Source: a virus
Taxonomy: Duplodnaviria; Heunggongvirae; Uroviricota; Caudoviricetes
DNA: 17,265 bases
Virus record (IMG/VR): IMGVR_UViG_2778261416_000002
Coordinates: 1-17,265 of that record
Direction: 5' to 3' (one strand)
The position numbers and the translations under genes are program-made. Under the pieces are notes generated by a model. The model did not search any database, had not been told where the DNA came from, and worked only from the letters and a program-made list of their open reading frames with translations. Of this stretch, positions 1,441 to 16,788 are shown piece after piece; positions within the stretch are counted from its first letter, which is position 1, and each line of letters starts with the position of its first letter.

Positions 1441-1446
1441 CGTTTC

Positions 1447-1533
1447 GCTGAAAAACATAACCCATAAAATGCTAGCTGTACCAGGAACCACCTCCTTAGC
1501 CTGTGTAATCTCCCTTACACGGGCTTATTTTTT
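1447..1533 (+). ncRNA. cyaR: CyaR (RyeE) Hfq-dependent small RNA
   Basis: The sequence gctgaaaaacataacccataaaatgctagctgtaccaggaaccacctccttagcctgtgtaatctcccttacacgggcttatttttt matches the CyaR sRNA as I recall it. It ends in an intrinsic terminator hairpin (cccttacacggg) plus a T-run. Location between yegQ and a P2-like ogr gene is the known context. Confidence 0.85.
1507..1533. repeat. attL: 27-bp P2 attachment core (aatctcccttacacgggcttatttttt) overlapping the 3' end of cyaR
   Basis: Exact 27-bp direct repeat of 16762..16788. It is the reverse complement of the P2 att core as I recall it (AAAAAATAAGCCCGTGTAAGGGAGATT). Confidence 0.8.
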
Positions 1534-1596
1534 ACGCGTAATACAATGAAATAAAAGGATTTATTTCTGGTCACGTCCACACATTGACCACATCGA

Positions 1597-1622
1597 CAAA
1601 AAAGCCCCTCGACTGAGGGGCT
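1597..1622 (-). terminator. Intrinsic terminator downstream of ogr
   Basis: Stem agcccctc/gaggggct (1603..1610 and 1615..1622, loop gact) followed on the minus strand by a T-run (A-run 1597..1602 on plus). Confidence 0.55.
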
Positions 1623-1634
1623 TCCTGTTTGTAA

Positions 1635-1853
1635 TTACATCCACATAATTTGCTGCCCTGACGGCAACGGGTGCGGCCTTACTGCGTGGACTTCTCCCGG
1701 CTTCACGATGTATCTCTGTACCGACTCATAAGTGATGAACGTGGCGCTGCAATTCACGTTCTGACACTGGTGATAACGCTCTTTTGTCGTGTCAGTGATA
1801 TAGCGGCTTGTACGCGCATGTGCGGCATGCTGGCATAAAGGACAATGAAACAT
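1635..1853 (-). CDS. ogr: Late gene transcriptional activator Ogr (zinc-finger)
   Basis: 72-aa product MFHCPLCQHAAHARTSRYITDTTKERYHQCQNVNCSATF... matches P2 Ogr including the Cys4 zinc-binding pattern. The supplied ORF has a 21-codon upstream extension that I trim to the canonical ATG at 1853. Confidence 0.88.
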   Translation of the reverse strand: MFHCPLCQHAAHARTSRYITDTTKERYHQCQNVNCSATFITYESVQRYIVKPGEVHAVRPHPLPSGQQIMWM

Positions 1854-1934
1854 CGCGAGCACCTCTTCCGGTTTTGTTGATGGTGCCATTTTAGTTAATT
1901 TATCCTTATAAAACAAACAGATAAAATAAAAACA

Positions 1935-3098
1935 TCACTCATCATCTTCTGTTTCGTACTCCACATCAGAAAGCCTGACCTCAAGCTCCAAGGACGTCGT
2001 GAAGCCGCTATTATTCAGAAAATGTGTCACCTTAGTGATTGTCCAGTCCTGCTCGTCTATGACGCGCTTAAAGCCTGACACTTTAACCGGTGTTTCCGTG
2101 TAAATATCAGCACGACCGGTAGCCAGACTGATGGAGAACTCCGCAACGCCCCGTTGCAGCTTATCCCACTTCGCCTGAGCGGCGCGCATGGCCTGTGCTT
2201 TCGTGGCATATACCGTGGTCAGTGCAAAAACGTTGTCAGCCTCACCGGCCATGTATTCACCTTCGCGCGCCTCCGGTACTTTTGGCGCTTTCTTCTGCGT
2301 GACTGGTTTCGCTTTCGGGTGCTCCAGTGCGCGCAGGTGTTTTTCTTTCTTTTTGCGTTTCAGTTTTACCTTCTGCTTTTGCGGCTTCGGGTCTTTGGTG
2401 TGTAACCACTTTGCCGTTACGCCGGTGTAAGCTCCACGGTCAGCAATCGCAAAATGATGACGGTCACCGTCGCTGCGGGTGATGGTAATCTGCGGGATTT
2501 TTTTACCGCTGGCCGTCACCCCCTGCCCCGCTTTGAGAAACAGCAGTTTTCCCATTTTTACCGACACCTCACCGCCGTTGCGTTCAGCAAGGCGGGTCAG
2601 GAATTTTGCATCAGACTCCTGCGACTGGTCGATGTGCGGGATTTTAATTCCGGCCAGTGACGGCGCGACACTGGCTTCCAGCCTGTTACGGGAGGCTATC
2701 GCCTCAACAATCGCACCGAGCGTGGTGTCATGCCATGAGCCTTCACGGCGGGAATTGAGCGTCCCGCGAAAATCTGCACTCCGGGCGCGGATGGTGACCA
2801 CATCCGGCGCGCCCCGGTGTTCAACCTCATCAACGGTGAATTTCCCTTTGCATACCAGGGCAAAACCTTTCCAGCCGATATACACCGTCAGGACAGCGCC
2901 ACGAACCGGCAGCCCGACCTGCCCGTCGGCATCGTTCAGTTCAATATCAAGCTGGTCAGCCTCAAAGCCCCGGTTATCCGTCAGGGTCATACTCATCAGA
3001 CGGTCGCTGATATTGCCGGTAATATCCCTGCTGTCGAGCATCAGCATGTAATCCGGCGTCAGCGTACTGCCTGCATCAAATGTCAGTGCATCCAGCAT
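1935..3098 (-). CDS. D: P2 tail protein D (late control gene D family)
   Basis: 387-aa ORF whose sequence and length match P2 gpD. Its ATG overlaps the U stop codon (TAATG) and it lies immediately upstream of ogr as in P2. Confidence 0.88.
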   Translation of the reverse strand: MLDALTFDAGSTLTPDYMLMLDSRDITGNISDRLMSMTLTDNRGFEADQLDIELNDADGQVGLPVRGAVLTVYIGWKGFALVCKGKFTVDEVEHRGAPDVVTIRARSADFRGTLNSRREGSWHDTTLGAIVEAIASRNRLEASVAPSLAGIKIPHIDQSQESDAKFLTRLAERNGGEVSVKMGKLLFLKAGQGVTASGKKIPQITITRSDGDRHHFAIADRGAYTGVTAKWLHTKDPKPQKQKVKLKRKKKEKHLRALEHPKAKPVTQKKAPKVPEAREGEYMAGEADNVFALTTVYATKAQAMRAAQAKWDKLQRGVAEFSISLATGRADIYTETPVKVSGFKRVIDEQDWTITKVTHFLNNSGFTTSLELEVRLSDVEYETEDDE

Positions 3099-3577
3099 TA
3101 TCCCGCCCCCGTCATACCCGTGAATCTGGTCGCCATACTGCCAGCTTTACCGATGAGCGATTCCGCCTGTTTACCGATATCGCCATAAAGCGCGGCCAGT
3201 GATTCATCAACGCGGGTGAGCGACAGCGTAAAATCAATTTTCCGGGGTGTGCCGTCTGCAAAGAAAATACTCCCTGTTTCACTCACCCTGCTGATGACAT
3301 ACATGCCGTAAATCATGCCGATGCCATCCAGCAACGGCCACGCCCGGCCTTCCTCTGCCATCAGCCTGAGCGTGGTCATCGTCAGCTTTCCGCCGGTCAG
3401 TTCGGGATAAAGCACACCGGCAAGCGTGATGTTTTCCTCGCCAACGCCGAGAAACTGGTAGGCATCCCGTTTACCGATACGGGAATTTGACGGCCAGCGA
3501 TAATCTGATTCACGCTGCATGGTCTGGTGTGGCAGCGTCTGGCGCATAAAAACAAACATACCTAACGCGAGCATCAT
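3098..3577 (-). CDS. U: P2 tail protein U
   Basis: 159-aa ORF between the T C-terminus and D, as in P2. Strong Shine-Dalgarno AGGAGGTGA 6 nt upstream of the ATG. Confidence 0.85.
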   Translation of the reverse strand: MMLALGMFVFMRQTLPHQTMQRESDYRWPSNSRIGKRDAYQFLGVGEENITLAGVLYPELTGGKLTMTTLRLMAEEGRAWPLLDGIGMIYGMYVISRVSETGSIFFADGTPRKIDFTLSLTRVDESLAALYGDIGKQAESLIGKAGSMATRFTGMTGAG

Positions 3578-3591
3578 TTTTCGTCACCTCC

Positions 3592-4911
3592 TTAACCGTC
3601 ATGCATCATGCTGGCACGGGCGCGCGCACGTTTATCCCGCTCGTATTTTTCGAGCGCATCCTGTAACTGGCGGTCAAGCTGTGTCCCCGGCGCAGTACCA
3701 CCCGTCAGGCTGATGTGATATTCGTTTTTACTCTGGTCCACATAAGAGCGGCCAGCCGGTGCCGTAACCGGCTGATAAGCCTGATAGTCTGCATAAGAGC
3801 TGGTCGCCGGAATATAACCACCGCTGCCATACGTGGCGGCTTGAGTTCTGGCGGCGGTCTGGTCAAGTGTGTCTGACTCTTTGTTGATAACACCGAGTTT
3901 TTCCAGTACCCAGTCAATTCCGCTGCGCAGTTTGTTGAACGCATTAAGCGGCAGCATCAGCGCGTCAGCCAGTGCCTGCCCGAACATGACGCCAGTATCA
4001 CGGCAACGGTTCAGGGTGTCCTGGGTGGCTTTGACCGGGGCAATCAGGTTTTTAAACCACTGCCACGCGGCCTGTAACTTTTCGCCCAGCCAGTCAAACA
4101 CCGGCTTAAGTGGCGTGAACAGTTCCCCCACCGGCGCAAATGCCGCTTTCAGCCCTTCCATCACACCGCCAAAGAATGCGCTGACAGGCTCCCAGTATTT
4201 ACGGATAAGCAACGCCCCGGCGACAATGGCGGCCACCACGGCCACAATCAGGTTGTTGGTCGCATCCATCACCAGTGCGTCAAGGCTGGCATAATCACCG
4301 CCCTTACCCACGCGGATAACCTCAGAGGTCGTGTGACCTTCCTCGTCAGTGACCTTGCTCATCACGCGCGCCGGGGCTTCATTGCGGTATTTCTGCAGCC
4401 AGCCGACCGCCACATCCTGCAGCATCGGATTGCTGCTGCGGTCAGAGGTTTCGGCACGCCTCACGCCGTTAAAACCGGCCATGATGAAATCAAGGGACTG
4501 GCGTTTGATAATGGCGTTACGGACACGGAGCTGGAAATCCTGATAACGCGCCCACAGGTCCAGCGTTTTGTAGCGGATATAAAAATCGAAGTTAATCTGG
4601 TCGCATTCGTACTTGTTTGACGCCAGCTTCGAGAAGTCCTTCGGCTGACGCTCGGTGCCACCGGCGGTGTCGGTGGTGCTGGCGATGGAGCCGGTGACAC
4701 CGATGCCAATTTTTTCCCCTTTCATTTCGCTGACCGGCACAATGTTGATGCGGGTCAGAAAGTCAGAGGACTCCTGCATGGTGTTCATCAGGGTCTGGGT
4801 GACCGACGGTTCAACGGTGAATTTTTTCGACACATCACCGGCGTCGATGCCGTTCAGTTCGGCAACACGGGACAGGTAGGCATTAAATTTAAAGCGGGTT
4901 TCCTGGCGCAT
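3592..4911 (-). CDS. Chimeric ORF: N-terminal ~222 aa of major capsid protein gpN fused in frame to C-terminal ~217 aa of tail tape measure protein gpT (deletion derivative)
   Basis: The N-terminus MRQETRFKFNAYLSRVAELNG... up to ...DALVMDATNNLI matches P2 gpN as I recall it, but the ORF is 439 aa where gpN is 357 aa. The C-terminal part has hydrophobic helices (VAVVAAIVAGALLI...) and ends immediately upstream of U, the position of the T 3' end. gpO lies directly upstream. The junction is near nt 4246. Confidence 0.7.
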   Translation of the reverse strand: MRQETRFKFNAYLSRVAELNGIDAGDVSKKFTVEPSVTQTLMNTMQESSDFLTRINIVPVSEMKGEKIGIGVTGSIASTTDTAGGTERQPKDFSKLASNKYECDQINFDFYIRYKTLDLWARYQDFQLRVRNAIIKRQSLDFIMAGFNGVRRAETSDRSSNPMLQDVAVGWLQKYRNEAPARVMSKVTDEEGHTTSEVIRVGKGGDYASLDALVMDATNNLIVAVVAAIVAGALLIRKYWEPVSAFFGGVMEGLKAAFAPVGELFTPLKPVFDWLGEKLQAAWQWFKNLIAPVKATQDTLNRCRDTGVMFGQALADALMLPLNAFNKLRSGIDWVLEKLGVINKESDTLDQTAARTQAATYGSGGYIPATSSYADYQAYQPVTAPAGRSYVDQSKNEYHISLTGGTAPGTQLDRQLQDALEKYERDKRARARASMMHDG

Positions 4912-4969
4912 AGTTTTTCCTGAAATTAAGGGTTAATCGTGAAGGTTTTCCCGGACTGACTGACGCCGG

Positions 4970-5824: not shown

Positions 5825-5997
5825 TGTCAGGAGTCCTGAATAGTGATTAGAGGAGTCACATGTCGGCATCAGTTTCCCGACGATGCGCATCCTCCGCCAT
5901 CAGTCCCGGATGGCTTATCACTGACACAACAGCACCTTAGCGAATCGCGGGGCGCGACTCAGTAGCCTTGCCGTGTATTCATCACGGCGAGGTATTC

Positions 5998-7770
5998 ATG
6001 ACCATCACCACAGACACCACTCTTTTACACGACCCGCGTCGTCAGGCGGCGCTGCTGTACTGGCAGGGATTTTCCGTGCCGCAGATTGCCGCCATGTTGC
6101 AGATGAAACGCCCGACGGTGCAGAGCTGGAAACAGCGCGACGGCTGGGACAGCGTTGCCCCCATCAGCCGTGTCGAAATGAGTCTGGAAGCGCGGCTGAC
6201 CCAGCTCATCATCAAACCGCAGAAAACCGGCGGTGACTTCAAGGAAATTGACCTGCTCGGACGCCAGATTGAACGACTGGCACGGGTCAACCGTTACAGT
6301 CAGACCGGCAACGAGGCAGACCTTAATCCGAACGTCGCTAACCGCAACAAAGGCGGGCGGCGCAAACCGAAAAAGAATTTTTTCAGTGACGAGGCCATCG
6401 AAAAGCTGGAGCAGATTTTCTTTGAGCAGTCTTTCGAATATCAGTTGCACTGGTATCGCGCCGGGCTTGAGCACCGCATCCGCGATATCCTGAAATCCCG
6501 CCAGATTGGCGCGACGTTTTATTTTTCCCGCGAGGCGCTGCTGCGCGCCCTGAAAACAGGTCATAACCAGATTTTTCTGTCGGCCAGTAAAACGCAGGCG
6601 TATGTGTTCCGCGAATACATCATCGCCTTTGCCCGGCTGGTTGACGTTGACCTGACCGGTGACCCGATTGTCCTGGGCAATAACGGCGCAAAACTGATTT
6701 TTCTCGGCACCAACTCCAACACCGCGCAGAGCCATAACGGCGACCTGTACGTCGATGAGATTTTCTGGATCCCGAATTTTCAGGTACTGCGTAAGGTGGC
6801 ATCAGGTATGGCCTCACAGAGTCACCTGCGCTCGACCTATTTCTCCACCCCGTCCACGCTGGCGCACGACGCCTACCCGTTCTGGTCGGGTGAACTGTTC
6901 AACCGGGGACGCGCCAGCGCCGCCGAACGCGTGGAAATCGACGTCAGTCATAATGCCCTTGCCGGTGGGCTTCTCTGTGCGGACGGTCAGTGGCGGCAGA
7001 TTGTCACCATTGAGGACGCCCTGAAAGGCGGCTGCACACTGTTCGACATTGAGCAGCTCAAACGCGAAAACAGCGCCGACGATTTTAAAAACCTGTTCAT
7101 GTGTGAATTTGTTGACGACAAGGCGTCGGTATTCCCGTTCGAGGAGCTGCAACGCTGCATGGTCGACACGCTGGAAGAATGGGAAGACTATGCGCCGTTT
7201 GCCGCCAATCCGTTCGGCTCCCGCCCGGTATGGATTGGTTACGACCCGTCACACCGTGGCGACAGCGCCGGATGCGTGGTGCTGGCACCGCCGGTGGTGG
7301 CCGGTGGCAAATTCAGAATACTTGAGCGTCACCAGTGGAAAGGCATGGACTTTGCCACCCAGGCGGAATCCATCCGCAAACTCACCGAAAAATACAACGT
7401 CGAATACATCGGAATTGATGCCACCGGCCTCGGTGTCGGCGTGTTCCAGCTCGTGCGCTCGTTCTATCCCGCCGCGCGCGACATCCGCTACACGCCGGAA
7501 ATGAAAACCGCAATGGTGCTCAAGGCAAAAGACGTTATCCGCCGTGGCTGTCTGGAATATGACGTCAGCGCCACCGACATCACCAGCTCGTTTATGGCTA
7601 TCCGCAAGACCATGACCAGCAGCGGACGCAGCGCCACCTATGAGGCCAGCCGCAGCGAGGAAGCCAGCCACGCCGACCTCGCATGGGCGACCATGCACGC
7701 CCTGTTAAATGAGCCACTCACCGCCGGTATCAGCACCCCGCTGACATCCACCATTCTGGAGTTTTACTGA
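5998..7770 (+). CDS. P: Terminase ATPase (large) subunit gpP
   Basis: 590-aa product beginning MTITTDTTLLHDPRRQAALLYWQGFSVPQIA... matches P2 gpP. The supplied ORF begins at a TTG at 5968; the ATG at 5998 has a GAGG Shine-Dalgarno 5 nt upstream. Divergent from O, as in P2. Confidence 0.88.
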   Translation: MTITTDTTLLHDPRRQAALLYWQGFSVPQIAAMLQMKRPTVQSWKQRDGWDSVAPISRVEMSLEARLTQLIIKPQKTGGDFKEIDLLGRQIERLARVNRYSQTGNEADLNPNVANRNKGGRRKPKKNFFSDEAIEKLEQIFFEQSFEYQLHWYRAGLEHRIRDILKSRQIGATFYFSREALLRALKTGHNQIFLSASKTQAYVFREYIIAFARLVDVDLTGDPIVLGNNGAKLIFLGTNSNTAQSHNGDLYVDEIFWIPNFQVLRKVASGMASQSHLRSTYFSTPSTLAHDAYPFWSGELFNRGRASAAERVEIDVSHNALAGGLLCADGQWRQIVTIEDALKGGCTLFDIEQLKRENSADDFKNLFMCEFVDDKASVFPFEELQRCMVDTLEEWEDYAPFAANPFGSRPVWIGYDPSHRGDSAGCVVLAPPVVAGGKFRILERHQWKGMDFATQAESIRKLTEKYNVEYIGIDATGLGVGVFQLVRSFYPAARDIRYTPEMKTAMVLKAKDVIRRGCLEYDVSATDITSSFMAIRKTMTSSGRSATYEASRSEEASHADLAWATMHALLNEPLTAGISTPLTSTILEFY

Positions 7771-8804
7771 TGAGCAAGAAAAAAGGGAAAACACCGCAAC
7801 CTGCGGCAAAAAAAATGACCGCCAGCGCCCTGAAAATGGAGGCATTCACCTTTGGTGAGCCGGTGCCGGTACTCGACCGCCGTGACATTCTGGATTACGT
7901 CGAGTGCATCAGTAACGGCAGATGGTATGAGCCACCGGTCAGCTTTACCGGTCTGGCAAAAAGCCTGCGTGCTGCCGTGCATCACAGCTCACCGATTTAC
8001 GTTAAACGCAATATTCTGGCCTCGACATTTATCCCGCATCCGTGGCTTTCTCAGCAGGATTTTAGCCGCTTTGTACTGGATTTTCTGGTGTTCGGTAATG
8101 CGTTTCTGGAAAAGCGTTACAGCACCACCGGTAAGGTCATCAGACTGGAAACCTCACCGGCAAAATATACCCGCCGTGGTGTGGAAGAGGATGTTTACTG
8201 GTGGGTGCCGTCCTTCAACGAGCCGACACCTTTCACGCCCGGCTCCGTGTTTCACCTGCTGGAGCCGGATATTAATCAGGAGCTGTACGGCCTGCCGGAA
8301 TATCTCAGCGCCCTTAATTCTGCCTGGCTGAATGAGTCGGCCACGCTGTTCCGCCGCAAGTATTACGAAAACGGCGCACATGCCGGATACATCATGTACG
8401 TCACTGATGCCGTGCAGGATCGCAACGATATCGAAATGCTTCGCGAAAACATGGTTAAGTCGAAAGGCCGCAACAACTTTAAAAACCTGTTTCTCTATGC
8501 CCCGCAGGGGAAAGCTGACGGCATTAAAATTATCCCGCTCAGTGAAGTGGCAACGAAGGACGATTTTTTTAATATCAAAAAAGCCAGCGCCGCTGACCTG
8601 CTGGACGCACACCGCATCCCCTTTCAGTTGATGGGCGGCAAGCCGGAGAACGTCGGGTCGCTGGGTGATATTGAGAAAGTGGCAAAGGTCTTTGTCCGCA
8701 ATGAGCTTATCCCGTTACAGGACAGGATCCGCGAGATAAACGGCTGGCTCGGTCAGGAGGTCATCCGCTTTAAAAACTACTCACTGGACACTGACAACGG
8801 CTGA
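7770..8804 (+). CDS. Q: Portal (capsid portal vertex) protein gpQ
   Basis: 344-aa product matching P2 gpQ in sequence and length. Its start overlaps the P stop (TGATG). It is transcribed toward cos, as in P2. Confidence 0.88.
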   Translation: MSKKKGKTPQPAAKKMTASALKMEAFTFGEPVPVLDRRDILDYVECISNGRWYEPPVSFTGLAKSLRAAVHHSSPIYVKRNILASTFIPHPWLSQQDFSRFVLDFLVFGNAFLEKRYSTTGKVIRLETSPAKYTRRGVEEDVYWWVPSFNEPTPFTPGSVFHLLEPDINQELYGLPEYLSALNSAWLNESATLFRRKYYENGAHAGYIMYVTDAVQDRNDIEMLRENMVKSKGRNNFKNLFLYAPQGKADGIKIIPLSEVATKDDFFNIKKASAADLLDAHRIPFQLMGGKPENVGSLGDIEKVAKVFVRNELIPLQDRIREINGWLGQEVIRFKNYSLDTDNG

Positions 8805-8808
8805 ACAT

Positions 8809-8830
8809 CGCCGCCTGCGGGCGGCTTTTT
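8809..8830 (+). terminator. Intrinsic terminator downstream of Q
   Basis: GC stem gccgcc/ggcggc with loop tgcg, followed by tttttt (8825..8830). Confidence 0.6.
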
Positions 8831-8965
8831 TACACCCCGCCCTCACACGCTCACCACCGCACAAAACATCCCGCAGACACACCAACGCCCCGGCGAACAA
8901 TCTAAACGCCATCACGACGCGCTCAGACGCTGAAAAAATAAAATCAGCACTACCGCCAGCGCGCA

Positions 8966-8984
8966 GTGCTTTCCCCGCCTCGCC
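8966..8984. other. cos site: 19-nt cohesive-end sequence of P2 (gtgctttccccgcctcgcc, reverse complement of GGCGAGGCGGGGAAAGCAC)
   Basis: Exact match to the P2 19-nt cohesive end as I recall it, in the expected position just past the 3' end of Q. Confidence 0.8.
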
Positions 8985-9008
8985 CGCCCGCTTCATGAGA
9001 CGGTTTTA

Positions 9009-10721
9009 ATGCAGTTGCATTATGTCCCGCTCCTCAGTGCTGCGCTCCATCCTGATTACAAAAACCGTTATCAAAAACACATGCAAATAGACGCAGTCAA
9101 ATGCGCTACCGCCTCTCGCAATACCTTCAATTTCATGATAAAAAACATCATCCCTAACAAGAGCATTATCCTCATGAAAAAAGTATATGAACTAACCAGT
9201 GAAGAAGCACTGTCATATTTTCTTCGCCATGACTCCTACACAACCTTAGAATTACCGGCTTATATTAATTTCACCACATTATTAAATGATATTAATTCAT
9301 CTATCCATAACAAAAAAATTAAAATTGAACCAACCGCCAAGGAGCTGATGGGTAAAGATATCAATTATGAGGTGCTTGTCAGTAAAGATGGTCTATATAG
9401 CTGGCGTAGGATAACACTTATCAATCCCCTTTATTATGTCTACTTCTGTAGAAAAATCACAGCACCAGCAACCTGGGAAATCATAACAGAAAAATTCAAA
9501 TCTTTTGAATCAAACGACCTTTTTACATGTTCAAGCATCCCCGTCAGAAAAGACAACTCGTCAAACATTGCTGCATCTGTAATGAATTGGTGGGAAGATT
9601 TTGAACAAAAAAGCCTTGCCCTTGCTCTTGAATACGAATTCATGTTCAGCACTGACATCTCAAACTTCTACCCATCAATATATACTCATAGTTTTGAATG
9701 GGTATTCATATCAAAAGAAGAGGCAAAGAAGAAAAAAAGCAAAAATAACCCAGGAGGATTAATTGACAGCCACATTCAAATGATGATGAACAACCAGACA
9801 AATGGTATTCCACTCGGCAGCACATTGATGGATACATTTGCTGAGCTTATCTTGGGTCAAATCGATATAGAATTAAGAAAAAAAACTAACGAACTCAAAA
9901 TAATAAACTACAAGGTAGTACGCTATCGTGATGATTACCGGATCTTCTCTAATAGCAAAGATGATTTAGACATAATATCAAAATGTTTAGTCAATGTATT
10001 GGGCGATTTTGGTTTAGATCTAAACTCAAAAAAAACTGAACTATATGAAGACATCATACTTCATTCGTTGAAACAAGCTAAAAAAGACTACATCAAAGAA
10101 AAAAGACATAAGTCACTCCAGAAAATGCTCTATTCAATATATTTATTTTCACTTAAACATCCAAACTCGAAAACAACCGTTAGATATCTAAATGATTTTC
10201 TTAGGAATTTATTTAAGCGAAAGACAATTAAAGATAACGGCCAACAGGTTGATGCTATGCTTGGTATTATTTCAAGCATCATGGCAAAAAACCCTACAAC
10301 GTACCCAGTAGGAACGGCAATTTTCTCAAAACTCCTCAGTTTTCTTTATGGTGATGACACCCAAAAAAAATTAACAAAGCTAGAACAACTCCATAAAAAA
10401 CTGGATAAACAACCCAATACAGAAATGCTTGACATATGGTTTCAGCGAACTCAAGCAAAAATAAACCTAGAGTGGGATAAATCTTATAAGTCAGCTCTAT
10501 GCGTCCGTATAAATGATGAACTCACAAAAGAGAAAACATTTTCTGTAAATAATTTATGGAATATTGACTGGATCCAAGGAAAAGAAACAAGCCCCAATAA
10601 AGCCAAAATATTATCCTTGCTAAGAAAAACAAAAATCGTTGACACAGATAAATTTGATAAAATGGATGAAAATATAACACCTGAAGAAGTTAATCTATTC
10701 TTTAAAGAGCACAGCAATTAA
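9009..10721 (+). CDS. Reverse transcriptase, stand-alone defence-associated type (Abi-P2 / UG-Abi-like) with a C-terminal helical extension
   Basis: RT motif A FSTDISNFYPSI (about 9645..9680), motif B NGIPLGSTLMDTFAELIL (9801..9854) and motif C VRYRDDY (9918..9938). The ORF is strongly AT-rich compared with flanking phage genes and sits in the cos-to-A variable locus. The true start may be an internal ATG at 9135 or 9174; the latter has aagag about 10 nt upstream. Confidence 0.8.
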   Translation: MQLHYVPLLSAALHPDYKNRYQKHMQIDAVKCATASRNTFNFMIKNIIPNKSIILMKKVYELTSEEALSYFLRHDSYTTLELPAYINFTTLLNDINSSIHNKKIKIEPTAKELMGKDINYEVLVSKDGLYSWRRITLINPLYYVYFCRKITAPATWEIITEKFKSFESNDLFTCSSIPVRKDNSSNIAASVMNWWEDFEQKSLALALEYEFMFSTDISNFYPSIYTHSFEWVFISKEEAKKKKSKNNPGGLIDSHIQMMMNNQTNGIPLGSTLMDTFAELILGQIDIELRKKTNELKIINYKVVRYRDDYRIFSNSKDDLDIISKCLVNVLGDFGLDLNSKKTELYEDIILHSLKQAKKDYIKEKRHKSLQKMLYSIYLFSLKHPNSKTTVRYLNDFLRNLFKRKTIKDNGQQVDAMLGIISSIMAKNPTTYPVGTAIFSKLLSFLYGDDTQKKLTKLEQLHKKLDKQPNTEMLDIWFQRTQAKINLEWDKSYKSALCVRINDELTKEKTFSVNNLWNIDWIQGKETSPNKAKILSLLRKTKIVDTDKFDKMDENITPEEVNLFFKEHSN

Positions 10722-10730
10722 TATCCCAAA

Positions 10731-10760
10731 GCCATGTTAGTAACATAACATGGCTTTTTT
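10731..10760 (+). terminator. Intrinsic terminator downstream of the RT gene (possibly bidirectional with convergent gene A)
   Basis: Hairpin gccatgtt-agtaacat-aacatggc followed by tttttt (10755..10760), 10 nt after the RT stop codon. Confidence 0.6.
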
Positions 10761-10824
10761 AAATCACTCATTATCAGTTATCAAGAACGAACATAACATT
10801 CTATTCCGAGGAGTTAAATTATCA

Positions 10825-13110
10825 TTAGATCCACTTAATATCCGTTATATCCTCCAGCCACTCCTCATCTACCAGATAGGTGAATTTTTTCCCGTCATAA
10901 TTTACGGTTGCTCCACGCGCCAGCGCCTCAAGCTCCCATCGCTGCGGCCTGATACCGTTCTGAGCGAGGTCAACGCGGATACGGGTAATTTGCATTCGTT
11001 CCGACCGGGTCAGTCTGGCCGATGGTGCCATTTCATACTGTTTTAACGGGCTTCCGTTTCTCTGCTGACGATTTGGTGTTCTCAGTCCGCATTTTAATGC
11101 ACCTCTGAGCGCCCTCACAACCTCCGGGTCACTCCATTCGATAACACCGTCATCAACCAGATTAAGCACTGCTGCGGCGTGTTCAGAAGGTGTGGGAGCC
11201 GGTAACGAAGTATCACCACCGGTGAGCTTTCCACAGTTATTGACAGGACTCCGAGGCGCGGCGATGCCGCTTTTTAAAGTCAAAGGCTCAACGACCGGCA
11301 CTTTCGGAACAATGCGCCAGTCCGTCGTTCTGGTGATATGAATATGACGCGCGCCGAGATGCGGCGCGTAAATGCCGACCACTCTCTCGACTTCTTCCTC
11401 GTACTCGTTAACTTCATCCGACGGACTACGGGCGACCCTGACAGTCTGACAATCGCGCGGGACATTTGCCCCACCCTGCGCGCTGATATACAGCGCAAAA
11501 TCGCCACTGTCTGCGGCAGCGCGTGCAGCCTCGACGCGTTCGTCAAACTCATCAGCAATGCTGACGCCGCGAGGTAATTTGCGTAGTTCACGGTAAGCCC
11601 CCATTGTCGGCAGGCCAACCGTTTTAAATTGCGGAATGCGCCACGTTGACGCCCATGCGGTAACAGCCGCGGCAGTGTCTTTCAGCGGCCTGCCGGTGTC
11701 GTTATCGAGCTGACCATCCAGTGCATAGCCGTCGATGTTTTTTGAAATGTATTTCGCGATATACCCCGCAGCACCGCCCCGGTTAAGGTGTTTTGCCTGA
11801 AAACGGTTTCGCGCGGCTCCTCTTTCGTCGCCATCCTCTTTGAGCGCATAGCGACGCATGATTTCGATAATCTGGTTACGCTGGCGCGGATTACAAAAAA
11901 GCATCATATGCCAGTGCGGCGTTCCGTCGTGGTGTGGCTCGACGACACGCAAACCGTAGACCTGTAAATCATTATCCTTGAATGCCGTGCGCATCAGGCT
12001 CCAGATACGGCAGAGATAACGCTGCGCATCCTTTGGATTAAATGCCTCATCGTTCCAGCCGTGATTTAGCTGGACGGTTTTACTTTCGCCTTTTCTGACC
12101 TGACGTGTCGGGTGATACTTTGACGGCGCGGTCAGCGTGATAAACATCCCCACATCACCCTCTGCTGCGGCGTAACGCTCAATACCGGCAATGGTGTTCA
12201 TCAGCTCCATCCGGCGAATTTCAGGATTAGAAATACTGCCCATCACCTTACTGATAAGGTCGATGCGCTCGCCGGTTTCCCTGTTTTCAAGGTCACACGA
12301 TTTAAGAAATTCCAGATTTGCCTGGCGGCGCGCACGCACATCACGAATGGCATGTTTACTGGCATAAGGAGAACGGTCTTTATTGACCTCCCCGACAGCT
12401 ATCAGTAACGCTTCATGCCAGCGCATACGCTGGCCTTTAAGCTGATGAGTCCACCACTCATCGTTAAACAGACGGGCAATGGCAGAATATGCCTGCCTCG
12501 TGGTCATCTGTCCTTTACGGTATTTTTTCCAGTAGAGCGGGGAAATATTGAAAGCACGTGCAGCGCCAGCAACATGACCATACAGGTGAGCCTGCGCCTC
12601 ATCCGTAAACAGCGATTCTTTTTCACCATGCGCATCAACCCATGCATCACAGAGTTCCTCATACATCATGAAAAGCTGCGATGAGATACGGGCGGCAAAC
12701 TTTTTCAGCTCCTTGTCATTCATTCCCGGCAGGCGCGCATAGTGATCACGCTCTGCCAGAAACAGCAACGACGCGTCGGTGTTCATTTCATGGCGCTGAT
12801 TCACACGCTCAATGCGCGGCCATAAACGACGCTGAAAAGTAGATGTGAGGAAATAAAACCCGTGCACCGGGCTTTTATTGCGCCGGATGTAGTCATAGCG
12901 TGAAGTAAACAGCGAGCGCAAAAAGTAAGGCAGGCGGTTAATCGTGGATAAAACACCTTGCACCTGACGCATCTCGTCACGTGTAAGAGGTCTTTCGCGC
13001 CCGACAGCCTCGCGTGGCGCGTTCCATGCATAAGCACCGGTAAACGCCTTACCGGTGCCTGCGGTAAATGCTGACGGAGGGACAAAACGCCCGGAGGCTT
13101 TAACGGCCAT
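10825..13110 (-). CDS. A: Replication initiation protein gpA (rolling-circle endonuclease)
   Basis: 761-aa product beginning MAVKASGRFVPPSAFTAG... matches P2 gpA in length and N-terminus. It contains the HxH-type motif region (PHWHMMLF) and tyrosine-rich region typical of the family. The supplied ORF begins at an upstream TTG; I trim to the ATG at 13110. Confidence 0.88.
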   Translation of the reverse strand: MAVKASGRFVPPSAFTAGTGKAFTGAYAWNAPREAVGRERPLTRDEMRQVQGVLSTINRLPYFLRSLFTSRYDYIRRNKSPVHGFYFLTSTFQRRLWPRIERVNQRHEMNTDASLLFLAERDHYARLPGMNDKELKKFAARISSQLFMMYEELCDAWVDAHGEKESLFTDEAQAHLYGHVAGAARAFNISPLYWKKYRKGQMTTRQAYSAIARLFNDEWWTHQLKGQRMRWHEALLIAVGEVNKDRSPYASKHAIRDVRARRQANLEFLKSCDLENRETGERIDLISKVMGSISNPEIRRMELMNTIAGIERYAAAEGDVGMFITLTAPSKYHPTRQVRKGESKTVQLNHGWNDEAFNPKDAQRYLCRIWSLMRTAFKDNDLQVYGLRVVEPHHDGTPHWHMMLFCNPRQRNQIIEIMRRYALKEDGDERGAARNRFQAKHLNRGGAAGYIAKYISKNIDGYALDGQLDNDTGRPLKDTAAAVTAWASTWRIPQFKTVGLPTMGAYRELRKLPRGVSIADEFDERVEAARAAADSGDFALYISAQGGANVPRDCQTVRVARSPSDEVNEYEEEVERVVGIYAPHLGARHIHITRTTDWRIVPKVPVVEPLTLKSGIAAPRSPVNNCGKLTGGDTSLPAPTPSEHAAAVLNLVDDGVIEWSDPEVVRALRGALKCGLRTPNRQQRNGSPLKQYEMAPSARLTRSERMQITRIRVDLAQNGIRPQRWELEALARGATVNYDGKKFTYLVDEEWLEDITDIKWI

Positions 13111-13375
13111 ATGAGCCAAAAGCCTCTGAACAACGCTTGCTGAGTTGCTCAACCTGCGCGTTTAAATCAGCAAAAGATTTTGCGCTTCCGGTCAGAATAT
13201 CGTGATGCATCAGGCCGGAAACGAGCTGGCCTAATTTCGGGTAATAACCAACCACCGCCAGCCATTCCTGACCGGCGTTTTTACCGCTTTCCGCTCTCTT
13301 TTTCTCGTGGAGAATAAACTGAAAGCTGTCACTGGTAACGACATAACGTTCGCCAATTTCAATACGAATACTCAT
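13100..13375 (-). CDS. P2 Orf83-like small early protein (function unknown)
   Basis: 91-aa ORF in the orf83 position immediately upstream of A. Its ATG overlaps the preceding stop (ATGA), with a GGAGAA Shine-Dalgarno. Confidence 0.65.
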   Translation of the reverse strand: MSIRIEIGERYVVTSDSFQFILHEKKRAESGKNAGQEWLAVVGYYPKLGQLVSGLMHHDILTGSAKSFADLNAQVEQLSKRCSEAFGSYGR

Positions 13376-13596
13376 GCCGTTCTCCGGTAATGTTTGTTTT
13401 TTGCTTCAAAGACTGACTGACAGGAAACACAACGCGTGGCTGACGGATAAGCCGCACGACGGGCAGCAGGTATTGGCGCGTCACACTCTTCGCAAACCAG
13501 CGCAGAAACACCGCAATGTTTTACCCTTGCCGCGTTAATCTGGCGCTCCAGTAATTCAGCCTGTTGTTCCTGAATAAAATCCACGTTGTCCGGCAT
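13372..13596 (-). CDS. P2 Orf82-like C4 zinc-finger protein (TraR/DksA family)
   Basis: 74-aa ORF with a CxxC...CxxC pattern (CEECDAPIPAARR...CVSCQ) characteristic of TraR/DksA-type zinc fingers, in the orf82 position. Confidence 0.7.
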   Translation of the reverse strand: MPDNVDFIQEQQAELLERQINAARVKHCGVSALVCEECDAPIPAARRAAYPSATRCVSCQSVFEAKNKHYRRTA

Positions 13597-13898
13597 TACC
13601 AGCTCCTTTTGTCGTTCAGCTTCTTAAATTCATCAGCGCAATAACTGGCGAGTTCTGTCGTTAATTTTGTCAGTTCATCCACTGAGGAAATTTGCTTGTG
13701 GAATACAGCGCGTTTAACAAGTAAATTGACCACATCAGACAGGAGGTTTAATTCACTCTGATAAATCGCGATAACAGATTCAGTTATTTCGCGCTTCTCT
13801 TTATCAATACCAAGTTGAATAAGAGACAAATCACCATTTTTCATAACGGCGATTTTTAAGGCGTTATTCAGTAATACAACCGAACGAGAACAGGACAT
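13596..13898 (-). CDS. P2 Orf81-like small early protein (function unknown)
   Basis: 100-aa ORF from the ATG at 13898, which overlaps the orf80 stop (ATGA). The supplied ORF starts one codon earlier at a TTG. Confidence 0.65.
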   Translation of the reverse strand: MSCSRSVVLLNNALKIAVMKNGDLSLIQLGIDKEKREITESVIAIYQSELNLLSDVVNLLVKRAVFHKQISSVDELTKLTTELASYCADEFKKLNDKRSW

Positions 13899-14122
13899 CA
13901 AAGCACCTCCCCGCGAGACAATCCGATATTGTGAAATTTTTCCGACTCCTGACTGAGCAGCTCAACTATCTCCACGCGGGATAACTCCGCCTTTGTGATG
14001 TGGCGAATCATGGCGTCAAGATGAGAAGAAAAGCGCGTCGCAGCGTCGGCCTGTGCTTCGGTTCTGGCCTGTTGCAGCAGTAATGCGTATTTACCGCACT
14101 GATTTTCAGAAACTGTATGCAT
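13898..14122 (-). CDS. P2 Orf80-like small early protein (function unknown)
   Basis: 74-aa ORF with a GGAGAAAG Shine-Dalgarno upstream of the ATG, in the early operon between B and orf81. Confidence 0.65.
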
Positions 14123-14185
14123 GACTTTCTCCAGGCAAAAAGAAGCCCCGCACGATTAAGTGCGTTAAAAACTCTGGTTAATTAC

Positions 14186-14686
14186 TTAATGCAGATATTG
14201 CTCTGGTTTTACCGACGTCAGAATTGTCGGTGCATACTCAAACAGGCTGAATAATTCACGTAATGCACGGAATAAAGCATCACGCCAGTAACATGACTCT
14301 TCATTAATTCGCCAGTATGGCTGGTTAAATTCTTTTTCAGTCAATCCGGCATGCATAAATAAAGTACGACGCTGACTGACTGTTAAAAAACTAATATATG
14401 CATACTCACTTGCACCGACCTGACGACGTTTTGAGAATGCCCCACGCAATTCATCAATTGCACATACCAGTCGTTCACGTTCGACGTCGTTCATTTCTTC
14501 AAAACGCATCGTTGCGTGACGCTGTTTTAACTGCGCATGAAAGCAAACTGTTAGCCGTTCGCGCTCCATCATCTGATTATAATAATCACATGTATCCTGC
14601 CAGCGAGGAACGGCAAGATGCTTACCAATTATCCGGCGCATAGCTGCTGGCTGTTTTTCAACGAGATTGAGCGTCATCACTGTCAT
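14186..14686 (-). CDS. B: Replication protein gpB (helicase loader-like)
   Basis: 166-aa product MTVMTLNLVEKQPAAMRRIIGKHLAVPRWQDTCDYYNQMMERERL... matches P2 gpB. A GGAGGG Shine-Dalgarno is optimally spaced for the ATG at 14686 rather than the one at 14692. Confidence 0.85.
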   Translation of the reverse strand: MTVMTLNLVEKQPAAMRRIIGKHLAVPRWQDTCDYYNQMMERERLTVCFHAQLKQRHATMRFEEMNDVERERLVCAIDELRGAFSKRRQVGASEYAYISFLTVSQRRTLFMHAGLTEKEFNQPYWRINEESCYWRDALFRALRELFSLFEYAPTILTSVKPEQYLH

Positions 14687-14853
14687 TTCCATACCCTCCG
14701 GCTTTTCAGAAAGGTCAGAGCCTTTTTTAACGGACTCTGTTTTTTGGTGCGGATAATGATTCCCTTACGCCCCTTACCGTGGGTGATGGTGAAGTCAATC
14801 GCCCTGGGGCTTTCGTTACGCAGTAACTGAGCAATACAACGAGGCTCATTCAT
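14683..14853 (-). CDS. P2 Orf78-like small protein (function unknown)
   Basis: 56-aa ORF with a perfect AAGGAGA Shine-Dalgarno 5 nt upstream of the ATG at 14853. Its stop overlaps the B start (ATGA). The supplied ORF begins at an upstream GTG. Confidence 0.6.
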   Translation of the reverse strand: MNEPRCIAQLLRNESPRAIDFTITHGKGRKGIIIRTKKQSPLKKALTFLKSRRVWK

Positions 14854-14863
14854 ACGGTTCTCC

Positions 14864-15139
14864 TTAACGTGGTTCACCGAGACCTAACCACATCAACCAG
14901 CCGTCACGAATCTCTTTAGGTCGGCTTTCATAAGCCAGTTTTAGTCCGTTATTCCATGCCGGAAGGTATACCCAATATTCACCTGCACGACCTGAAGCTG
15001 ATTGTGGATCGGTCATATCAATTACAGGCAGCTTTCCTTTATCGATCATCCGACGAACCGCTCCTGTCGATTTTCCTATTAGTTTTGCGAACTCCTGATA
15101 AGGAATCGCATCAGTCATGAGTGTTACTTGCTTGCTCAT
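14864..15139 (-). CDS. cox: Cox protein (excisionase and repressor of Pc; directionality factor)
   Basis: 91-aa product MSKQVTLMTDAIPYQEFAKLIGKSTGAVRRMIDKGKLPVIDMTD... matches P2 Cox. It is divergent from C and first gene of the early operon. Confidence 0.88.
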   Translation of the reverse strand: MSKQVTLMTDAIPYQEFAKLIGKSTGAVRRMIDKGKLPVIDMTDPQSASGRAGEYWVYLPAWNNGLKLAYESRPKEIRDGWLMWLGLGEPR

Positions 15140-15149
15140 GTCGTCCTCT

Positions 15150-15260
15150 AGCCCTCATGAATTGCGTTTAATGTCTTATAATGCCTTTTAGTGCCCACAT
15201 CCAAGCACTAAACAATCTACATCTAAACTAAATACTATTGAGATCTAAACACCATGTCAA
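15150..15260. promoter_or_regulatory. Immunity switch region: candidate Pc (-10 tataat 15177..15182, plus strand), candidate Pe (-35 ttgaca and -10 tagtat on minus strand, plus-strand coordinates 15255..15260 and 15233..15238), and two 8-bp direct-repeat C operators atctaaac (15221..15228, 15243..15250)
   Basis: Hexamers are read directly from the sequence; the Pe spacer is 16 bp. The two direct repeats are 22 bp centre to centre and flank the Pe -10, as described for P2 C repressor operators O1/O2. Predicted Pe and Pc transcripts would converge and overlap. Confidence 0.55.
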
Positions 15261-15553
15261 ACACGATAAGCGAGAAGATAGTCTTAATGCGAAAATCAGA
15301 GTATTTGAGCAGACAACAACTTGCTGATTTAACAGGGGTTCCGTATGGCACGCTGAGTTACTATGAAAGTGGTCGTTCAACACCTCCAACAGATGTCATG
15401 ATGAACATCCTGCAGACCCCACAATTCACCAAATACACTTTATGGTTCATGACCAATCAGATCGCTCCTGAGTCCGGGCAAATTGCGCCCGCTCTCGCAC
15501 ACTTTGGGCAAAACGAAACAACGTCGCCCCACTCCGGTCAAAAGACTGGTTAA
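15254..15553 (+). CDS. C: Immunity repressor C
   Basis: 99-aa product MSNTISEKIVLMRKSEYLSRQQLADLTGVPYGTLSYYESGRSTPP... matches P2 C repressor, with the helix-turn-helix region QQLADLTGVPYGTLSYYE. Confidence 0.88.
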   Translation: MSNTISEKIVLMRKSEYLSRQQLADLTGVPYGTLSYYESGRSTPPTDVMMNILQTPQFTKYTLWFMTNQIAPESGQIAPALAHFGQNETTSPHSGQKTG

Positions 15554-15668
15554 CAATTCATCGTGAATATATTCATCACAAGTGCCTACTATTGGTGGCT
15601 AAATTTCAGCCACCACGAAAAAAGCGATTAGTAGTCGCAAAAAAACACACCACTCGGAGGGTTTTCTG

Positions 15669-16682
15669 ATGGCAATCAAAAAACTCGATGATGGTCGATA
15701 TGAAGTGGACATCCGCCCTACTGGACGTAATGGAAAACGCATCCGTAGGAAGTTTGATAAGAAAAGCGAAGCTGTCGCTTTCGAGAAATACACGTTGTAC
15801 AACCACCACAATAAAGAATGGCTATCAAAACCAACAGACAAGCGACGTCTGTCGGAGCTGACACAGATCTGGTGGGATTTAAAGGGTAAACACGAAGAGC
15901 ATGGGAAATCTAATCTTGGAAAAATTGAAATCTTCACAAAAATAACGAATGACCCATGCGCATTTCAAATTACGAAATCGCTTATCAGCCAGTACTGCGC
16001 CACCCGAAGAAGTCAGGGTATTAAACCTTCGAGTATCAATCGTGATTTAACATGTATTAGCGGCATGTTTACAGCCCTGATTGAAGCGGAGTTATTCTTT
16101 GGTGAGCACCCTATCAGAGGGACAAAAAGGCTTAAGGAGGAAAAACCAGACACAGGCTATCTCACGCAGGAAGAAATTGCCTTACTGCTTGCTGCTCTTG
16201 ACGGCGACAACAAAAAGATTGCGATTCTTTGCCTGAGTACTGGAGCACGTTGGGGAGAAGCAGCTCGTTTGAAAGCAGAAAATATCATCCATAACCGCGT
16301 CACGTTTGTTAAAACGAAAACAAACAAACCACGCACCGTCCCGATCTCAGAGGCTGTTGCCAAAATGATCGCGGATAACAAACGAGGTTTTTTATTCCCT
16401 GATGCTGATTACCCTCGCTTCAGACGAACAATGAAAGCAATAAAACCGGATTTGCCAATGGGGCAAGCCACACATGCACTAAGGCACAGCTTTGCCACTC
16501 ATTTCATGATTAATGGAGGAAGTATTATCACGCTACAACGGATACTAGGTCACACGCGGATTGAGCAAACTATGGTTTACGCTCATTTTGCGCCAGAGTA
16601 CCTTCAGGACGCCATTTCTCTTAATCCGCTAAGAGGTGGTACTGAGGCCGAGAGTGTCCACACAGTGTCCACAGTAGAGTAA
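15669..16682 (+). CDS. int: Tyrosine site-specific integrase
   Basis: 337-aa product matching P2 Int. The C-terminal catalytic region has HALRHSFATHF and LGHTRIEQTMVYAHF (R, H-x-x-R and Y). GGAGGG Shine-Dalgarno upstream. It lies adjacent to attR. Confidence 0.88.
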   Translation: MAIKKLDDGRYEVDIRPTGRNGKRIRRKFDKKSEAVAFEKYTLYNHHNKEWLSKPTDKRRLSELTQIWWDLKGKHEEHGKSNLGKIEIFTKITNDPCAFQITKSLISQYCATRRSQGIKPSSINRDLTCISGMFTALIEAELFFGEHPIRGTKRLKEEKPDTGYLTQEEIALLLAALDGDNKKIAILCLSTGARWGEAARLKAENIIHNRVTFVKTKTNKPRTVPISEAVAKMIADNKRGFLFPDADYPRFRRTMKAIKPDLPMGQATHALRHSFATHFMINGGSIITLQRILGHTRIEQTMVYAHFAPEYLQDAISLNPLRGGTEAESVHTVSTVE

Positions 16683-16761
16683 CGTTTAAGGGCTTTCAGT
16701 GGTAATTTATGCCGCTCAAACCCGCATTGTACCGTTGAAAGCCCCTACTGGTGACACCCTA

Positions 16762-16788
16762 AATCTCCCTTACACGGGCTTATTTTTT
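16762..16788. repeat. attR: second copy of the 27-bp P2 attachment core
   Basis: Exact repeat of 1507..1533; this copy is followed by one extra T. It lies 80 bp downstream of int. Confidence 0.8.

Follow-up and report, generated by a model that had tools for sequence, protein, structure and literature searches.

The stretch of DNA that was analysed, hereafter the window, is 17,265 nucleotides long, and positions 1507-16788 of it are a P2-type, Peduovirus-like prophage in E. coli. The prophage is bounded by two identical att cores of 27 bp (AATCTCCCTTACACGGGCTTATTTTTT) at 1507-1533 and 16762-16788, which are spaced 15,255 bp apart and each match the P2 attP core at 27/27 positions. The insertion site is yegQ-yegR (yegQ/trhP to yegR). 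The ogr-side core is the 3' end and terminator of the cyaR sRNA gene, so integration regenerates cyaR. When the element is excised in silico, the rejoined site matches the empty site at 100% over 466 nt, and the empty site was found in 4,564 of the 5,426 complete E. coli genomes. The element is thus an att-bounded, site-specific insertion with a matching empty site elsewhere, as is expected of a P2-like prophage.

The gene order and sequence of the element are collinear with P2. Four collinear blocks with 96.5-97.9% nucleotide identity were aligned to P2 (NC_001895) by blastn, and 18 P2 proteins were matched at 95-100%. The blocks and the features of the locus are listed below, where values in brackets refer to P2 unless another source is named.

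Window 1507-4247, blastn block 1, aligned to P2 24382-21642
Window 4235-8984, blastn block 2, aligned to P2 4755-1
Window 8966-9013, blastn block 3, aligned to P2 33593-33546
Window 10854-16788, blastn block 4, aligned to P2 30290-24356
1445..1530, plus strand, cyaR (ryeE) sRNA gene (Rfam RF00112, 100.7 bits, full model 1-85)
1507..1533, no strand, ogr-proximal att core (27/27 to attP, same as the other core)
1532-1565, minus strand, IHF site (5/34 mismatches)
1569-1596, minus strand, Int P-arm sites (0/28 mismatches)
1635..1853, minus strand, late-gene activator ogr (72/72 aa identical to Ogr)
1935..3098, minus strand, tail gene D (387/387 aligned, 99.0%)
3098..3577, minus strand, tail gene U (159/159 aligned, 98.7%)
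3592..4911, minus strand, in-frame N(1-~224)::T(~604-815) fusion ORF, 439 aa
4970..5824, minus strand, capsid scaffold/protease gene O (284/284 aligned, 99.3%)
5825..5997, no strand, PP/PO divergent Ogr-dependent late promoters with activator site (173/173 identical to 2994-3166)
5998..7770, plus strand, large terminase gene P (590/590 aligned, 99.8%)
7770..8804, plus strand, portal gene Q (344-aa ORF; 343/344 aligned, 98.5%)
8966..8984, minus strand, cos 19-nt cohesive-end sequence (exact match)
9009..10721, plus strand, Abi-P2 RT-like defence gene, orf570 of P2-EC30 (PADLOC AbiP2, 1e-161)
10825..13110, minus strand, replication initiator gene A (760/761 aligned, 96.4%)
13100..14122, minus strand, orf83, orf82, orf81, and orf80 (all full length, 95-98.6%)
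14186..14853, minus strand, B (166/166 aligned, 99.4%) and orf78 (100%)
14864..15139, minus strand, cox (91/91 aa identical to Cox)
15157..15260, no strand, Pe/Pc switch with operators O1 and O2 (six annotated elements, 0 mismatches)
15254..15553, plus strand, immunity repressor C (99/99 aa identical to C)
15669..16682, plus strand, integrase int (337/337 aligned, 99.7%)
16648..16745, minus strand, Int P' arm and Cox-binding boxes (0/27 and 0/74 mismatches)
16762..16788, no strand, int-proximal att core (27/27 to attP, same as the other core)

Only two departures from collinearity with P2 were identified, namely a 16.9-kb deletion and a cargo swap at the A-Q hotspot. The ogr, D, U, O, P, Q, A, B, orf78, orf80-83, cox, C, and int genes are full length and gap-free against P2, and no frameshift or stop codon was found in the ~13.4 kb of retained P2 DNA. 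The annotated cis sites (cos, ori, Pe/Pc/O1/O2, PP/PO, Int arms, and Cox boxes) are essentially those of P2. The -35 and -10 elements of ogr at 1887-1916 are also the same as in P2. The ori is located inside A, where the equivalent of the nick site is at ~11252 and the surrounding 61 nt are identical to P2. The flanks of cos match those of a full-length sibling prophage, and the core that is common to P2 and P4 is kept. Inactivating mutations in int, A, cos, att, and the promoters were sought by alignment and none was found. Divergence of the IHF region was considered as a defect and rejected, with window 1507-1640 being 100% identical in the isolated phage vB_EcoM-720R8. A 98-aa ORF at 10750-11046 runs over the end of A; neither Pfam nor PADLOC gave a match for it, and it was treated as spurious.

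The gene order of the element is shared with both P2 and P2-EC30 (AM157365, from E. coli ECOR30; Odegrip et al. 2006, as cited in PMC9508834 and PMC9122126). Its C, Cox, and Ogr proteins are identical to those of P2, with which it also has the att core, cos, ori, and promoters in common. The element differs from both phages in lacking ~16.9 kb of late genes, from the C-terminus of N through the N-terminus of T, and it differs from P2 itself in carrying an RT gene in place of orf91/tin/old.

The sole non-P2 DNA is found at 9014-10853 and holds the RT gene alone, in a cassette of low GC (0.33-0.37). The gene lies between cos/Q (8804/8984) and A (10825), as is expected of Abi-P2, at the variable cos-proximal A-Q hotspot of P2-like phages (PMC9122126). 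The RT is the top match to AbiP2 in PADLOC, the profile covers residues 56-568 of the protein, Pfam RVT_1 was also matched, and the catalytic YxDD is present as YRDD in the alignment to PDB 7R08. The RT is identical to 7R08 at 539/541 of the crystallised residues, with two conservative substitutions (N/D), and the cargo has 99.7% nucleotide identity to orf570/Abi-P2 of P2-EC30 (AM157365). It differs in nothing notable from Abi-P2 and the class 1 UG-Abi RTs (PDB 7R08; PMC9508834, PMC9226505). A non-coding RNA partner of the RT was sought by an Rfam scan, where cyaR was the sole match. Anti-T5 activity of orf570 of P2-EC30 is reported in a passage of PMC9508834 that cites Odegrip 2006. Abi-P2 has the same orientation as old and tin, and it should be expressed and give abortive-infection defence.

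P2 4756-21641 is missing from the element. The genes lost are M, L, X, Y, K, lysABC, R, S, V, W, J, I, H, G, FI, FII, and E/E', such that the element does not have the complete virion, packaging, and lysis module of a viable phage, and the truncated N and T are joined into one ORF. The two sides of the deletion meet at the TTG at 4245-4247, which they have in common and which is located in unique sequence; the 13-nt overlap of the BLAST blocks at the joint is imperfect similarity and no repeat. By tblastn, the fusion consists of N residues 1-221 and T residues 608-815, and Pfam Phage_cap_P2 spans its residues 8-223. The earlier note on this DNA had described a defective P2 derivative carrying a defence gene and keeping int, cox, att, C with Pe/Pc, A, B, ogr, cos, P, Q, and O. 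Its inventory of kept and lost functions is correct by blastn, protein alignments, and the cos match, and the kept functions are intact by sequence. The defect is borne out by the 16.9-kb loss of capsid, tail, and lysis genes, and the RT is a bona fide Abi-P2 by its PADLOC, 7R08, and P2-EC30 matches.

The junction was absent from the 5,426 complete E. coli genomes, which were searched with 600 nt spanning the joint, and a junction 28-mer, the validity of which was checked against the window, had no match in IMG/VR, JGI metagenomes, and GTDB representatives. The fusion protein (WP_097508780.1) was looked up exactly among 153 billion gene positions and 15 billion proteins. It forms a singleton cluster and is found on one NCBI contig and one Logan assembly, and the Logan locus is 100% identical to the window over the 14,911 bases compared. 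Within the collections searched, one strain alone has this junction. The occurrence in one strain only would also agree with an assembly artefact, where the real genome would hold a complete prophage, but such an artefact is extremely improbable. The NCBI and Logan assemblies agree on the junction, though perhaps from the same reads, and comparable deletions are found in closed genomes. Misassembly was rejected since the sequence around the joint is unique and the perfect microhomology there is only 3 nt long; this is much shorter than the k-mer of any assembler, so no collapse of a repeat would be expected.

The fusion might also be read as an anti-P2 weapon, where incoming Ogr would act on PO to drive O and the fusion, and a dominant-negative capsid/tape-measure protein would poison assembly. 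The 439-aa fusion is in frame and directly downstream of O under a 100% conserved PO, and ogr is intact. However, an in-frame joint arises by chance in 1 of 3 cases, the fusion is a singleton, the other decay products of the locus have different, out-of-frame or fragmentary joints, and the activity has neither experimental nor homologue support. We consider this reading barely credible.

Three examples of prophages at the yegQ-yegR locus were examined. Strain Combat13F7 has a full-length sibling at the same site, with the same RT and the same int, C, and cox proteins. The siblings of FT130 and isolateD at this site have other, independent internal deletions, which are P'::D' and M'::'FII, respectively. 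These differing deletions at one site fit ordinary decay. The K-12 ogrK/yegZ remnant sits at yegQ-yegR too. Defective P2-like elements with conserved defence genes have already been published (PMC13586616). The prophages of that study, K-12 ogrK/yegZ, Sakai Sp13, and the window element are all P2 backbones that have lost morphogenesis genes but keep accessory or defence genes intact. Compared to those defective prophages, the window element is minimally decayed, with one deletion and no pseudogenes among the kept genes. Sp13 of O157 Sakai, a defective P2-like prophage, excises, replicates, and is packaged, and it carries a P4 epsilon-like gene (PMC2669165) that the window element lacks.

We conclude that the element is probably a recently inactivated prophage of the P2-EC30 type, which is an ordinary decay product and no distinct kind of element. 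A complete P2-like phage with Abi-P2 at the A-Q hotspot would have entered the 27-bp core at the 3' end of cyaR via Int. Later, a single illegitimate recombination at the 3-nt microhomology TTG would have cut out ~16.9 kb, a stretch that begins midway through the capsid gene N and ends within the last quarter of the tape-measure gene T. Lost in this event would have been the small terminase gene M, the PF promoter, and the genes for head completion, lysis, the baseplate, the fibre, the sheath, and the tube. The element is unable to make capsids or tails, to cut cos without M, or to lyse the cell. C expressed from Pc should hold Pe off and give immunity to P2-homoimmune phages, since C and the operators are 100% identical to P2. 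On the best reading of its sequence, the element would still give both P2 immunity and Abi-P2 defence. The excision and replication functions would look intact solely because the time for decay has been too short. Transfer would need derepression and a heteroimmune or immunity-insensitive P2-like helper, which would be possible in principle, but nothing points to a transfer having taken place.

The earlier note had also proposed satellite-like mobilisation by a helper. This proposal found no support, as the junction and fusion occur in one strain and satellite-specific genes are absent. Packaging in trans would nevertheless be plausible in principle because the P2 machinery packages cos-bearing circles and plasmids in trans (PMC9942202, PMC2231350), and Sp13 is a precedent (PMC2669165). 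The element may accordingly be pictured as a helper-dependent, satellite-like mini-P2 that spreads Abi-P2 and P2 immunity, being excised by Int and Cox, replicated by A and B, cut at cos by helper M/P, and packaged in helper capsids. Every gene and cis site required for this route is intact by sequence. Heteroimmune P2-like prophages that are complete and have near-identical late genes are known, such as that of SC477 beside pflA. A dimer of the 15,255-bp circle would by arithmetic be 30.5 kb, or 91% of the P2 genome. The 15.3-kb monomer amounts to only 45% of what a P2 head holds. The Cox of SC477 has 123 aa against 91 aa here, and it is improbable that the Cox of a heteroimmune helper would drive excision. 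The C repressor of P2 is neither cleaved in the SOS response nor SOS-inducible. The cox, B, and A genes of P2 lie behind the repressed Pe, and A is cis-acting. The element's own C would shut out a homoimmune helper. The genomes, IMG/VR, JGI metagenomes, and GTDB representatives show no population sign of spread. No helper-sensing, derepression/anti-repressor, or capsid-size gene is present, as the element is collinear with P2 throughout apart from the RT cassette. The differing deletions at the same locus also suggest random decay. We consider such a spreading mini-P2 unlikely.

Compared with known satellites, the element has its own integration and replication functions and a helper-compatible packaging signal (int, cox, A, B, ori, and cos). 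It resembles P4, PICI, and cf-PICI in its small size, own integrase and replication, defence cargo by cos, and dependence on a helper for virion proteins. The 19-nt cos of P4, which is recognised by the P2 terminase, is identical to that of the window element. In contrast to P4, PICI, and cf-PICI, the element has no epsilon, delta, sid, or psu analogues and no helper-triggered derepression, and its backbone is the helper's own genome. No dedicated helper-exploitation gene was found, including a satellite-type late transactivator. A conserved and recurrent lineage was likewise not found, with the junction in 0/5,426 genomes and the fusion on 2 contigs. It is very unlikely that a single deletion has made the element a nascent satellite of its own relatives. 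Such a 15.3-kb satellite would excise, replicate from its own A/ori, and trans-activate a co-resident heteroimmune P2-like prophage with its own Ogr. Packaging would then proceed via cos, probably with a 30.5-kb dimer filling the P2 head. If this were true, the element would be a snapshot of a satellite arising straight from a helper genome and carrying Abi-P2.

Several observations weigh on the other side of the decay reading. The ~13.4 kb that are free of frameshifts and stop codons could also reflect selection for the kept functions. The kept set of att, int, cox, A/ori, ogr, and cos is exactly what packaging in trans needs, and Sp13 is defective yet excised, replicated, and packaged (PMC2669165). 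Public collections are a sample, such that absence of the junction elsewhere is no proof that the element never moved.

The significance of the element beyond annotation is small. Defective P2-like elements with defence genes, complementation of defective prophages, and packaging of cos DNA in trans by P2 are already documented. The element cleanly illustrates prophage domestication at its earliest step, where one deletion has occurred and the rest is intact, and it shows Abi-P2 and P2 immunity being fixed in the chromosome at the cyaR/yegQ-yegR site. Should mobilisation of the element be demonstrated, it would offer a convenient natural system for the question of whether satellites can arise directly from helper genomes.

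A 27-bp direct repeat (AATCTCCCTTACACGGGCTTATTTTTT) flanks the insert as two identical copies, at 1507-1533 and 16762-16788, with a spacing of 15,255 bp, and these are exactly the positions that the earlier note had given as the limits of the element. Both copies match the attP core of bacteriophage P2 at 27/27 positions each. The flanks joined in silico around a single core give a sequence of 466 nt. In many E. coli strains, the region between yegQ and yegR matches this sequence at 100% identity, hence the insert represents a precise site-specific integration. This empty-site sequence (at least 80% coverage) is present in 4,564 of the 5,426 complete E. coli genomes, and clean excision of the element would restore this common allele. 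The features that flank or overlap the insert are listed below; the positions of yegQ/trhP and yegR agree with the annotation in several closed E. coli genomes.

Flanking features
1-1362, + strand, yegQ/trhP, at the start of the window
1445-1530, + strand, complete CyaR/RyeE sRNA gene (Rfam RF00112, 100.7 bits)
16948-17265, - strand, yegR, at the end of the window

The 3' end of cyaR falls within the ogr-proximal att core (1507-1533). The att core thus corresponds to the 3' end and terminator of cyaR, and the core copy carried by the phage regenerates the gene. The use of the cyaR 3' end as a P2-type integration site was absent from the earlier note. The host flank just beyond the int-proximal core also contains 40 nt (16802-16841) that share 75% identity with the Int P-arm region of P2 type (window 1562-1601). 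Many E. coli strains have this stretch as part of their normal empty site. It resembles a scar that a far earlier P2-like insertion left at the yegQ-yegR locus.

The blastn comparison with P2 (NC_001895) resolved the insert into four collinear blocks that are inverted relative to the P2 map. The only insert DNA without a P2 counterpart in this comparison is 9014-10853, which has a GC content of 0.33-0.37 vs 0.43-0.59 in the P2-derived blocks.

Blocks collinear with P2
1507-4247 = P2 24382-21642, attP core, ogr, D, U and 3' part of T, 96.5% identity
4235-8984 = P2 4755-1, 5' part of N, O, P, Q and cosL, 97.7% identity
8966-9013 = P2 33593-33546, cosR side
10854-16788 = P2 30290-24356, A through int to attP core, 97.9% identity

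The first two blocks are joined by a deletion of ~16.9 kb (P2 positions about 4756-21641) that fuses the capsid gene N to the tape-measure gene T. In tblastn, the match to P2 N covers its residues 1-221 and that to T covers residues 608-815, and both segments lie in one frame.

N::T fusion
3592-4911, - strand, fusion ORF of 439 aa

The N-terminal half of this ORF matches Pfam Phage_cap_P2. When both P2 parental sequences were compared with the window, the joint was located at a TTG that both parents share (4245-4247), and the sequence across it reads ...CCTGATTG joined to TGGCCGTGG... The 13-nt overlap of the BLAST blocks at the joint was rejected as a repeat, as it is imperfect similarity only. 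Judged from the joint sequence, the deletion is an illegitimate, microhomology-level event. According to the P2 feature table, the deletion removed the N C-terminus, M, L, X, Y, K, lysA/B/C, R, S, orf30, V, W, J, I, H, G, Z/fun, FI, FII, E/E', the T N-terminus, and the PV and PF promoters. The element is therefore unable to form capsids or tails, and it is without the small terminase subunit, holin, and endolysin. Since PF is deleted, O and the N part now precede the T part of the fusion, U, and D in the PO operon (3592-5824, - strand). If Ogr were supplied, the cell would be predicted to make scaffold protein, the N'::'T fusion protein, gpU, and gpD.

All retained P2 genes are full length and ungapped (tblastn with P2 proteins). 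The annotated P2 cis elements were also mapped onto the window and their mismatches were counted.

Retained genes (aligned residues, identity to P2) and cis sites
Q, 343/344, 98.5%
P, 590/590, 99.8%
O, 284/284, 99.3%
U, 159/159, 98.7%
D, 387/387, 99.0%
Ogr, 72/72, 100%
Int, 337/337, 99.7%
C, 99/99, 100%
Cox, 91/91, 100%
orf78, full length, 100%
B, 166/166, 99.4%
orf80-83, full length, 95-98.6%
A, 760/761, 96.4%
Int arms, P arm 0/28 mismatches, P' arm 0/27
Cox boxes, 0/74 mismatches
Pe -35/-10, O1, O2 and Pc -10/-35, 0 mismatches in every element
ogr promoter, 0 mismatches
ori nick site and surrounding 61 nt, 0 mismatches
8966-8984, cos 19-nt sequence, exact match

The P-O intergenic region with the Ogr-dependent PP/PO promoters is identical to P2 at 173/173 bp. 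The cos flanks differ little from those in a full-length sibling prophage, and the core common to P2 and P4 is kept. The IHF region is the sole divergent cis site (5/34 mismatches). It was rejected as a lesion because the isolated phage vB_EcoM-720R8 has the surrounding stretch (1507-1640) at 100% identity, so the divergence is a natural variant. The earlier note had described the element as defective with integration/excision, immunity, replication, ogr, cos, P, Q, and O kept, and both parts of this description agree with the missing late genes and the intact sequences. The same note had named mutations that inactivate int, A, or cos as refuting; these were looked for by alignment and none were found. 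Between the Q stop codon and cos (8799-8965), a substitution cluster and a 7-bp deletion relative to P2 were observed. The best isolated-phage match to 8800-9020 in the collection has at most about 94% identity. The full-length prophage of Combat13F7 has the cos-proximal part of this variant almost exactly, with few positions that differ.

The DNA between A and Q carries an Abi-P2 reverse-transcriptase-like (RT) gene that is intact and has the same orientation as old/tin.

Cargo gene
9009-10721, RT ORF of 570 aa, top match the PADLOC AbiP2 model (1e-161, residues 56-568)

The RT is identical at 539/541 residues to the crystallised Abi-P2 of prophage P2-EC30 (PDB 7R08) and has 99.7% nucleotide identity to GenBank AM157365, "Enterobacteria phage P2-EC30" from ECOR30. 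A passage of PMC9508834 (citing Odegrip et al. 2006) places P2-EC30 orf570 in a variable region and states that it gives T5 resistance, and the cos-proximal A-Q locus is a defence hotspot of P2-like phages (PMC9122126). The defence gene and its location are hence already characterised. The RT start codon is ambiguous (9009-9174). The first ATG gives 570 aa as in the literature orf570, the crystallised Abi-P2 begins at M25 with a full length of 546 aa (PMC9508834), and the RefSeq annotation of 515 aa starts at M56, the residue where the AbiP2 profile match also begins. The same cassette (99.4% identity) was identified in SC477 (NZ_LR778152, 20383-21930) within a complete P2-like prophage next to pflA; the integrase and repressor of this prophage are different, and its Cox has 123 aa. 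The Abi-P2 cassette is thus common to heteroimmune P2-like phages.

Other prophages were found at the yegQ-yegR site. Combat13F7 has a full-length prophage with the same RT, and its int, C, and cox protein accessions are identical to those in the decayed siblings. FT130 (NZ_CP040090) has a different, larger deletion that leaves only fragments of P and D beside Q, the same RT, and the same early region. In isolateD (NZ_CP135488), the internal deletion is M'::'FII and the hotspot cargo is different. These two cases indicate that late-gene loss from P2 prophages at this site is recurrent and different each time. The N::T junction was found in none of the 5,426 complete E. coli genomes. Among about 15 billion proteins, the fusion protein (WP_097508780.1) forms a singleton cluster at 90%, with one occurrence on an NCBI contig and one in a Logan assembly (SRR3971774), whose locus is 100% identical to the window over the 14,911 bases compared. 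A junction-spanning 28-mer, verified on the window sequence, was not found in IMG/VR, JGI metagenomes, or GTDB species representatives. Across the genomes, proteins, and metagenomes searched, the junction is found in the source strain only, and these collections hold no trace of its horizontal spread or presence in viral fractions.

The immunity switch is intact, with C and operators identical to P2, and the excision and replication hardware is intact by sequence. From established P2 biology, C would repress Pe and exclude homoimmune P2-like phages, Abi-P2 would abort infection by T5-like phages, and the element alone would be immobile. We consider the helper-dependent mobilisation proposed in the earlier note to be improbable. 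P2 does package cos-bearing circles in trans (PMC9942202, PMC2231350), and in O157 Sakai the defective P2-like prophage Sp13 undergoes excision and replication and occurs in a DNase-resistant form (PMC2669165). Heteroimmune P2-like prophages that are complete, have almost identical late genes, and even carry this RT cassette also exist, one of them next to pflA in SC477. However, the Cox of such a helper differs (123 aa in SC477 vs 91 aa in the element), which makes excision of the element by it unlikely. By established P2 biology, cox, B, and A follow the repressed Pe promoter and A acts in cis, and the element's own C would block a homoimmune helper. The monomer of 15.26 kb is 45% of the P2 genome, and a P2 head would be filled only by the dimer (30.5 kb, 91%). 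Moreover, P2 C is not SOS-inducible (PMC2669165), and the element has no satellite-type gene, as all but the RT is collinear with P2. We take the intactness of the remaining genes to reflect a recent deletion and not selection for mobility.

Compared with known systems, the element has all that defines a P2-like prophage except completeness. It differs from phage satellites in two defining traits, as it lacks dedicated helper-exploitation genes and is not a recurrent lineage. It is a textbook carrier of Abi-P2. Earlier work described defective P2-like elements in which near-identical defence genes are conserved, and raised the question of domestication versus continued exchange (PMC13586616). 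The element is one more instance of these defective P2-like elements, minimally decayed.
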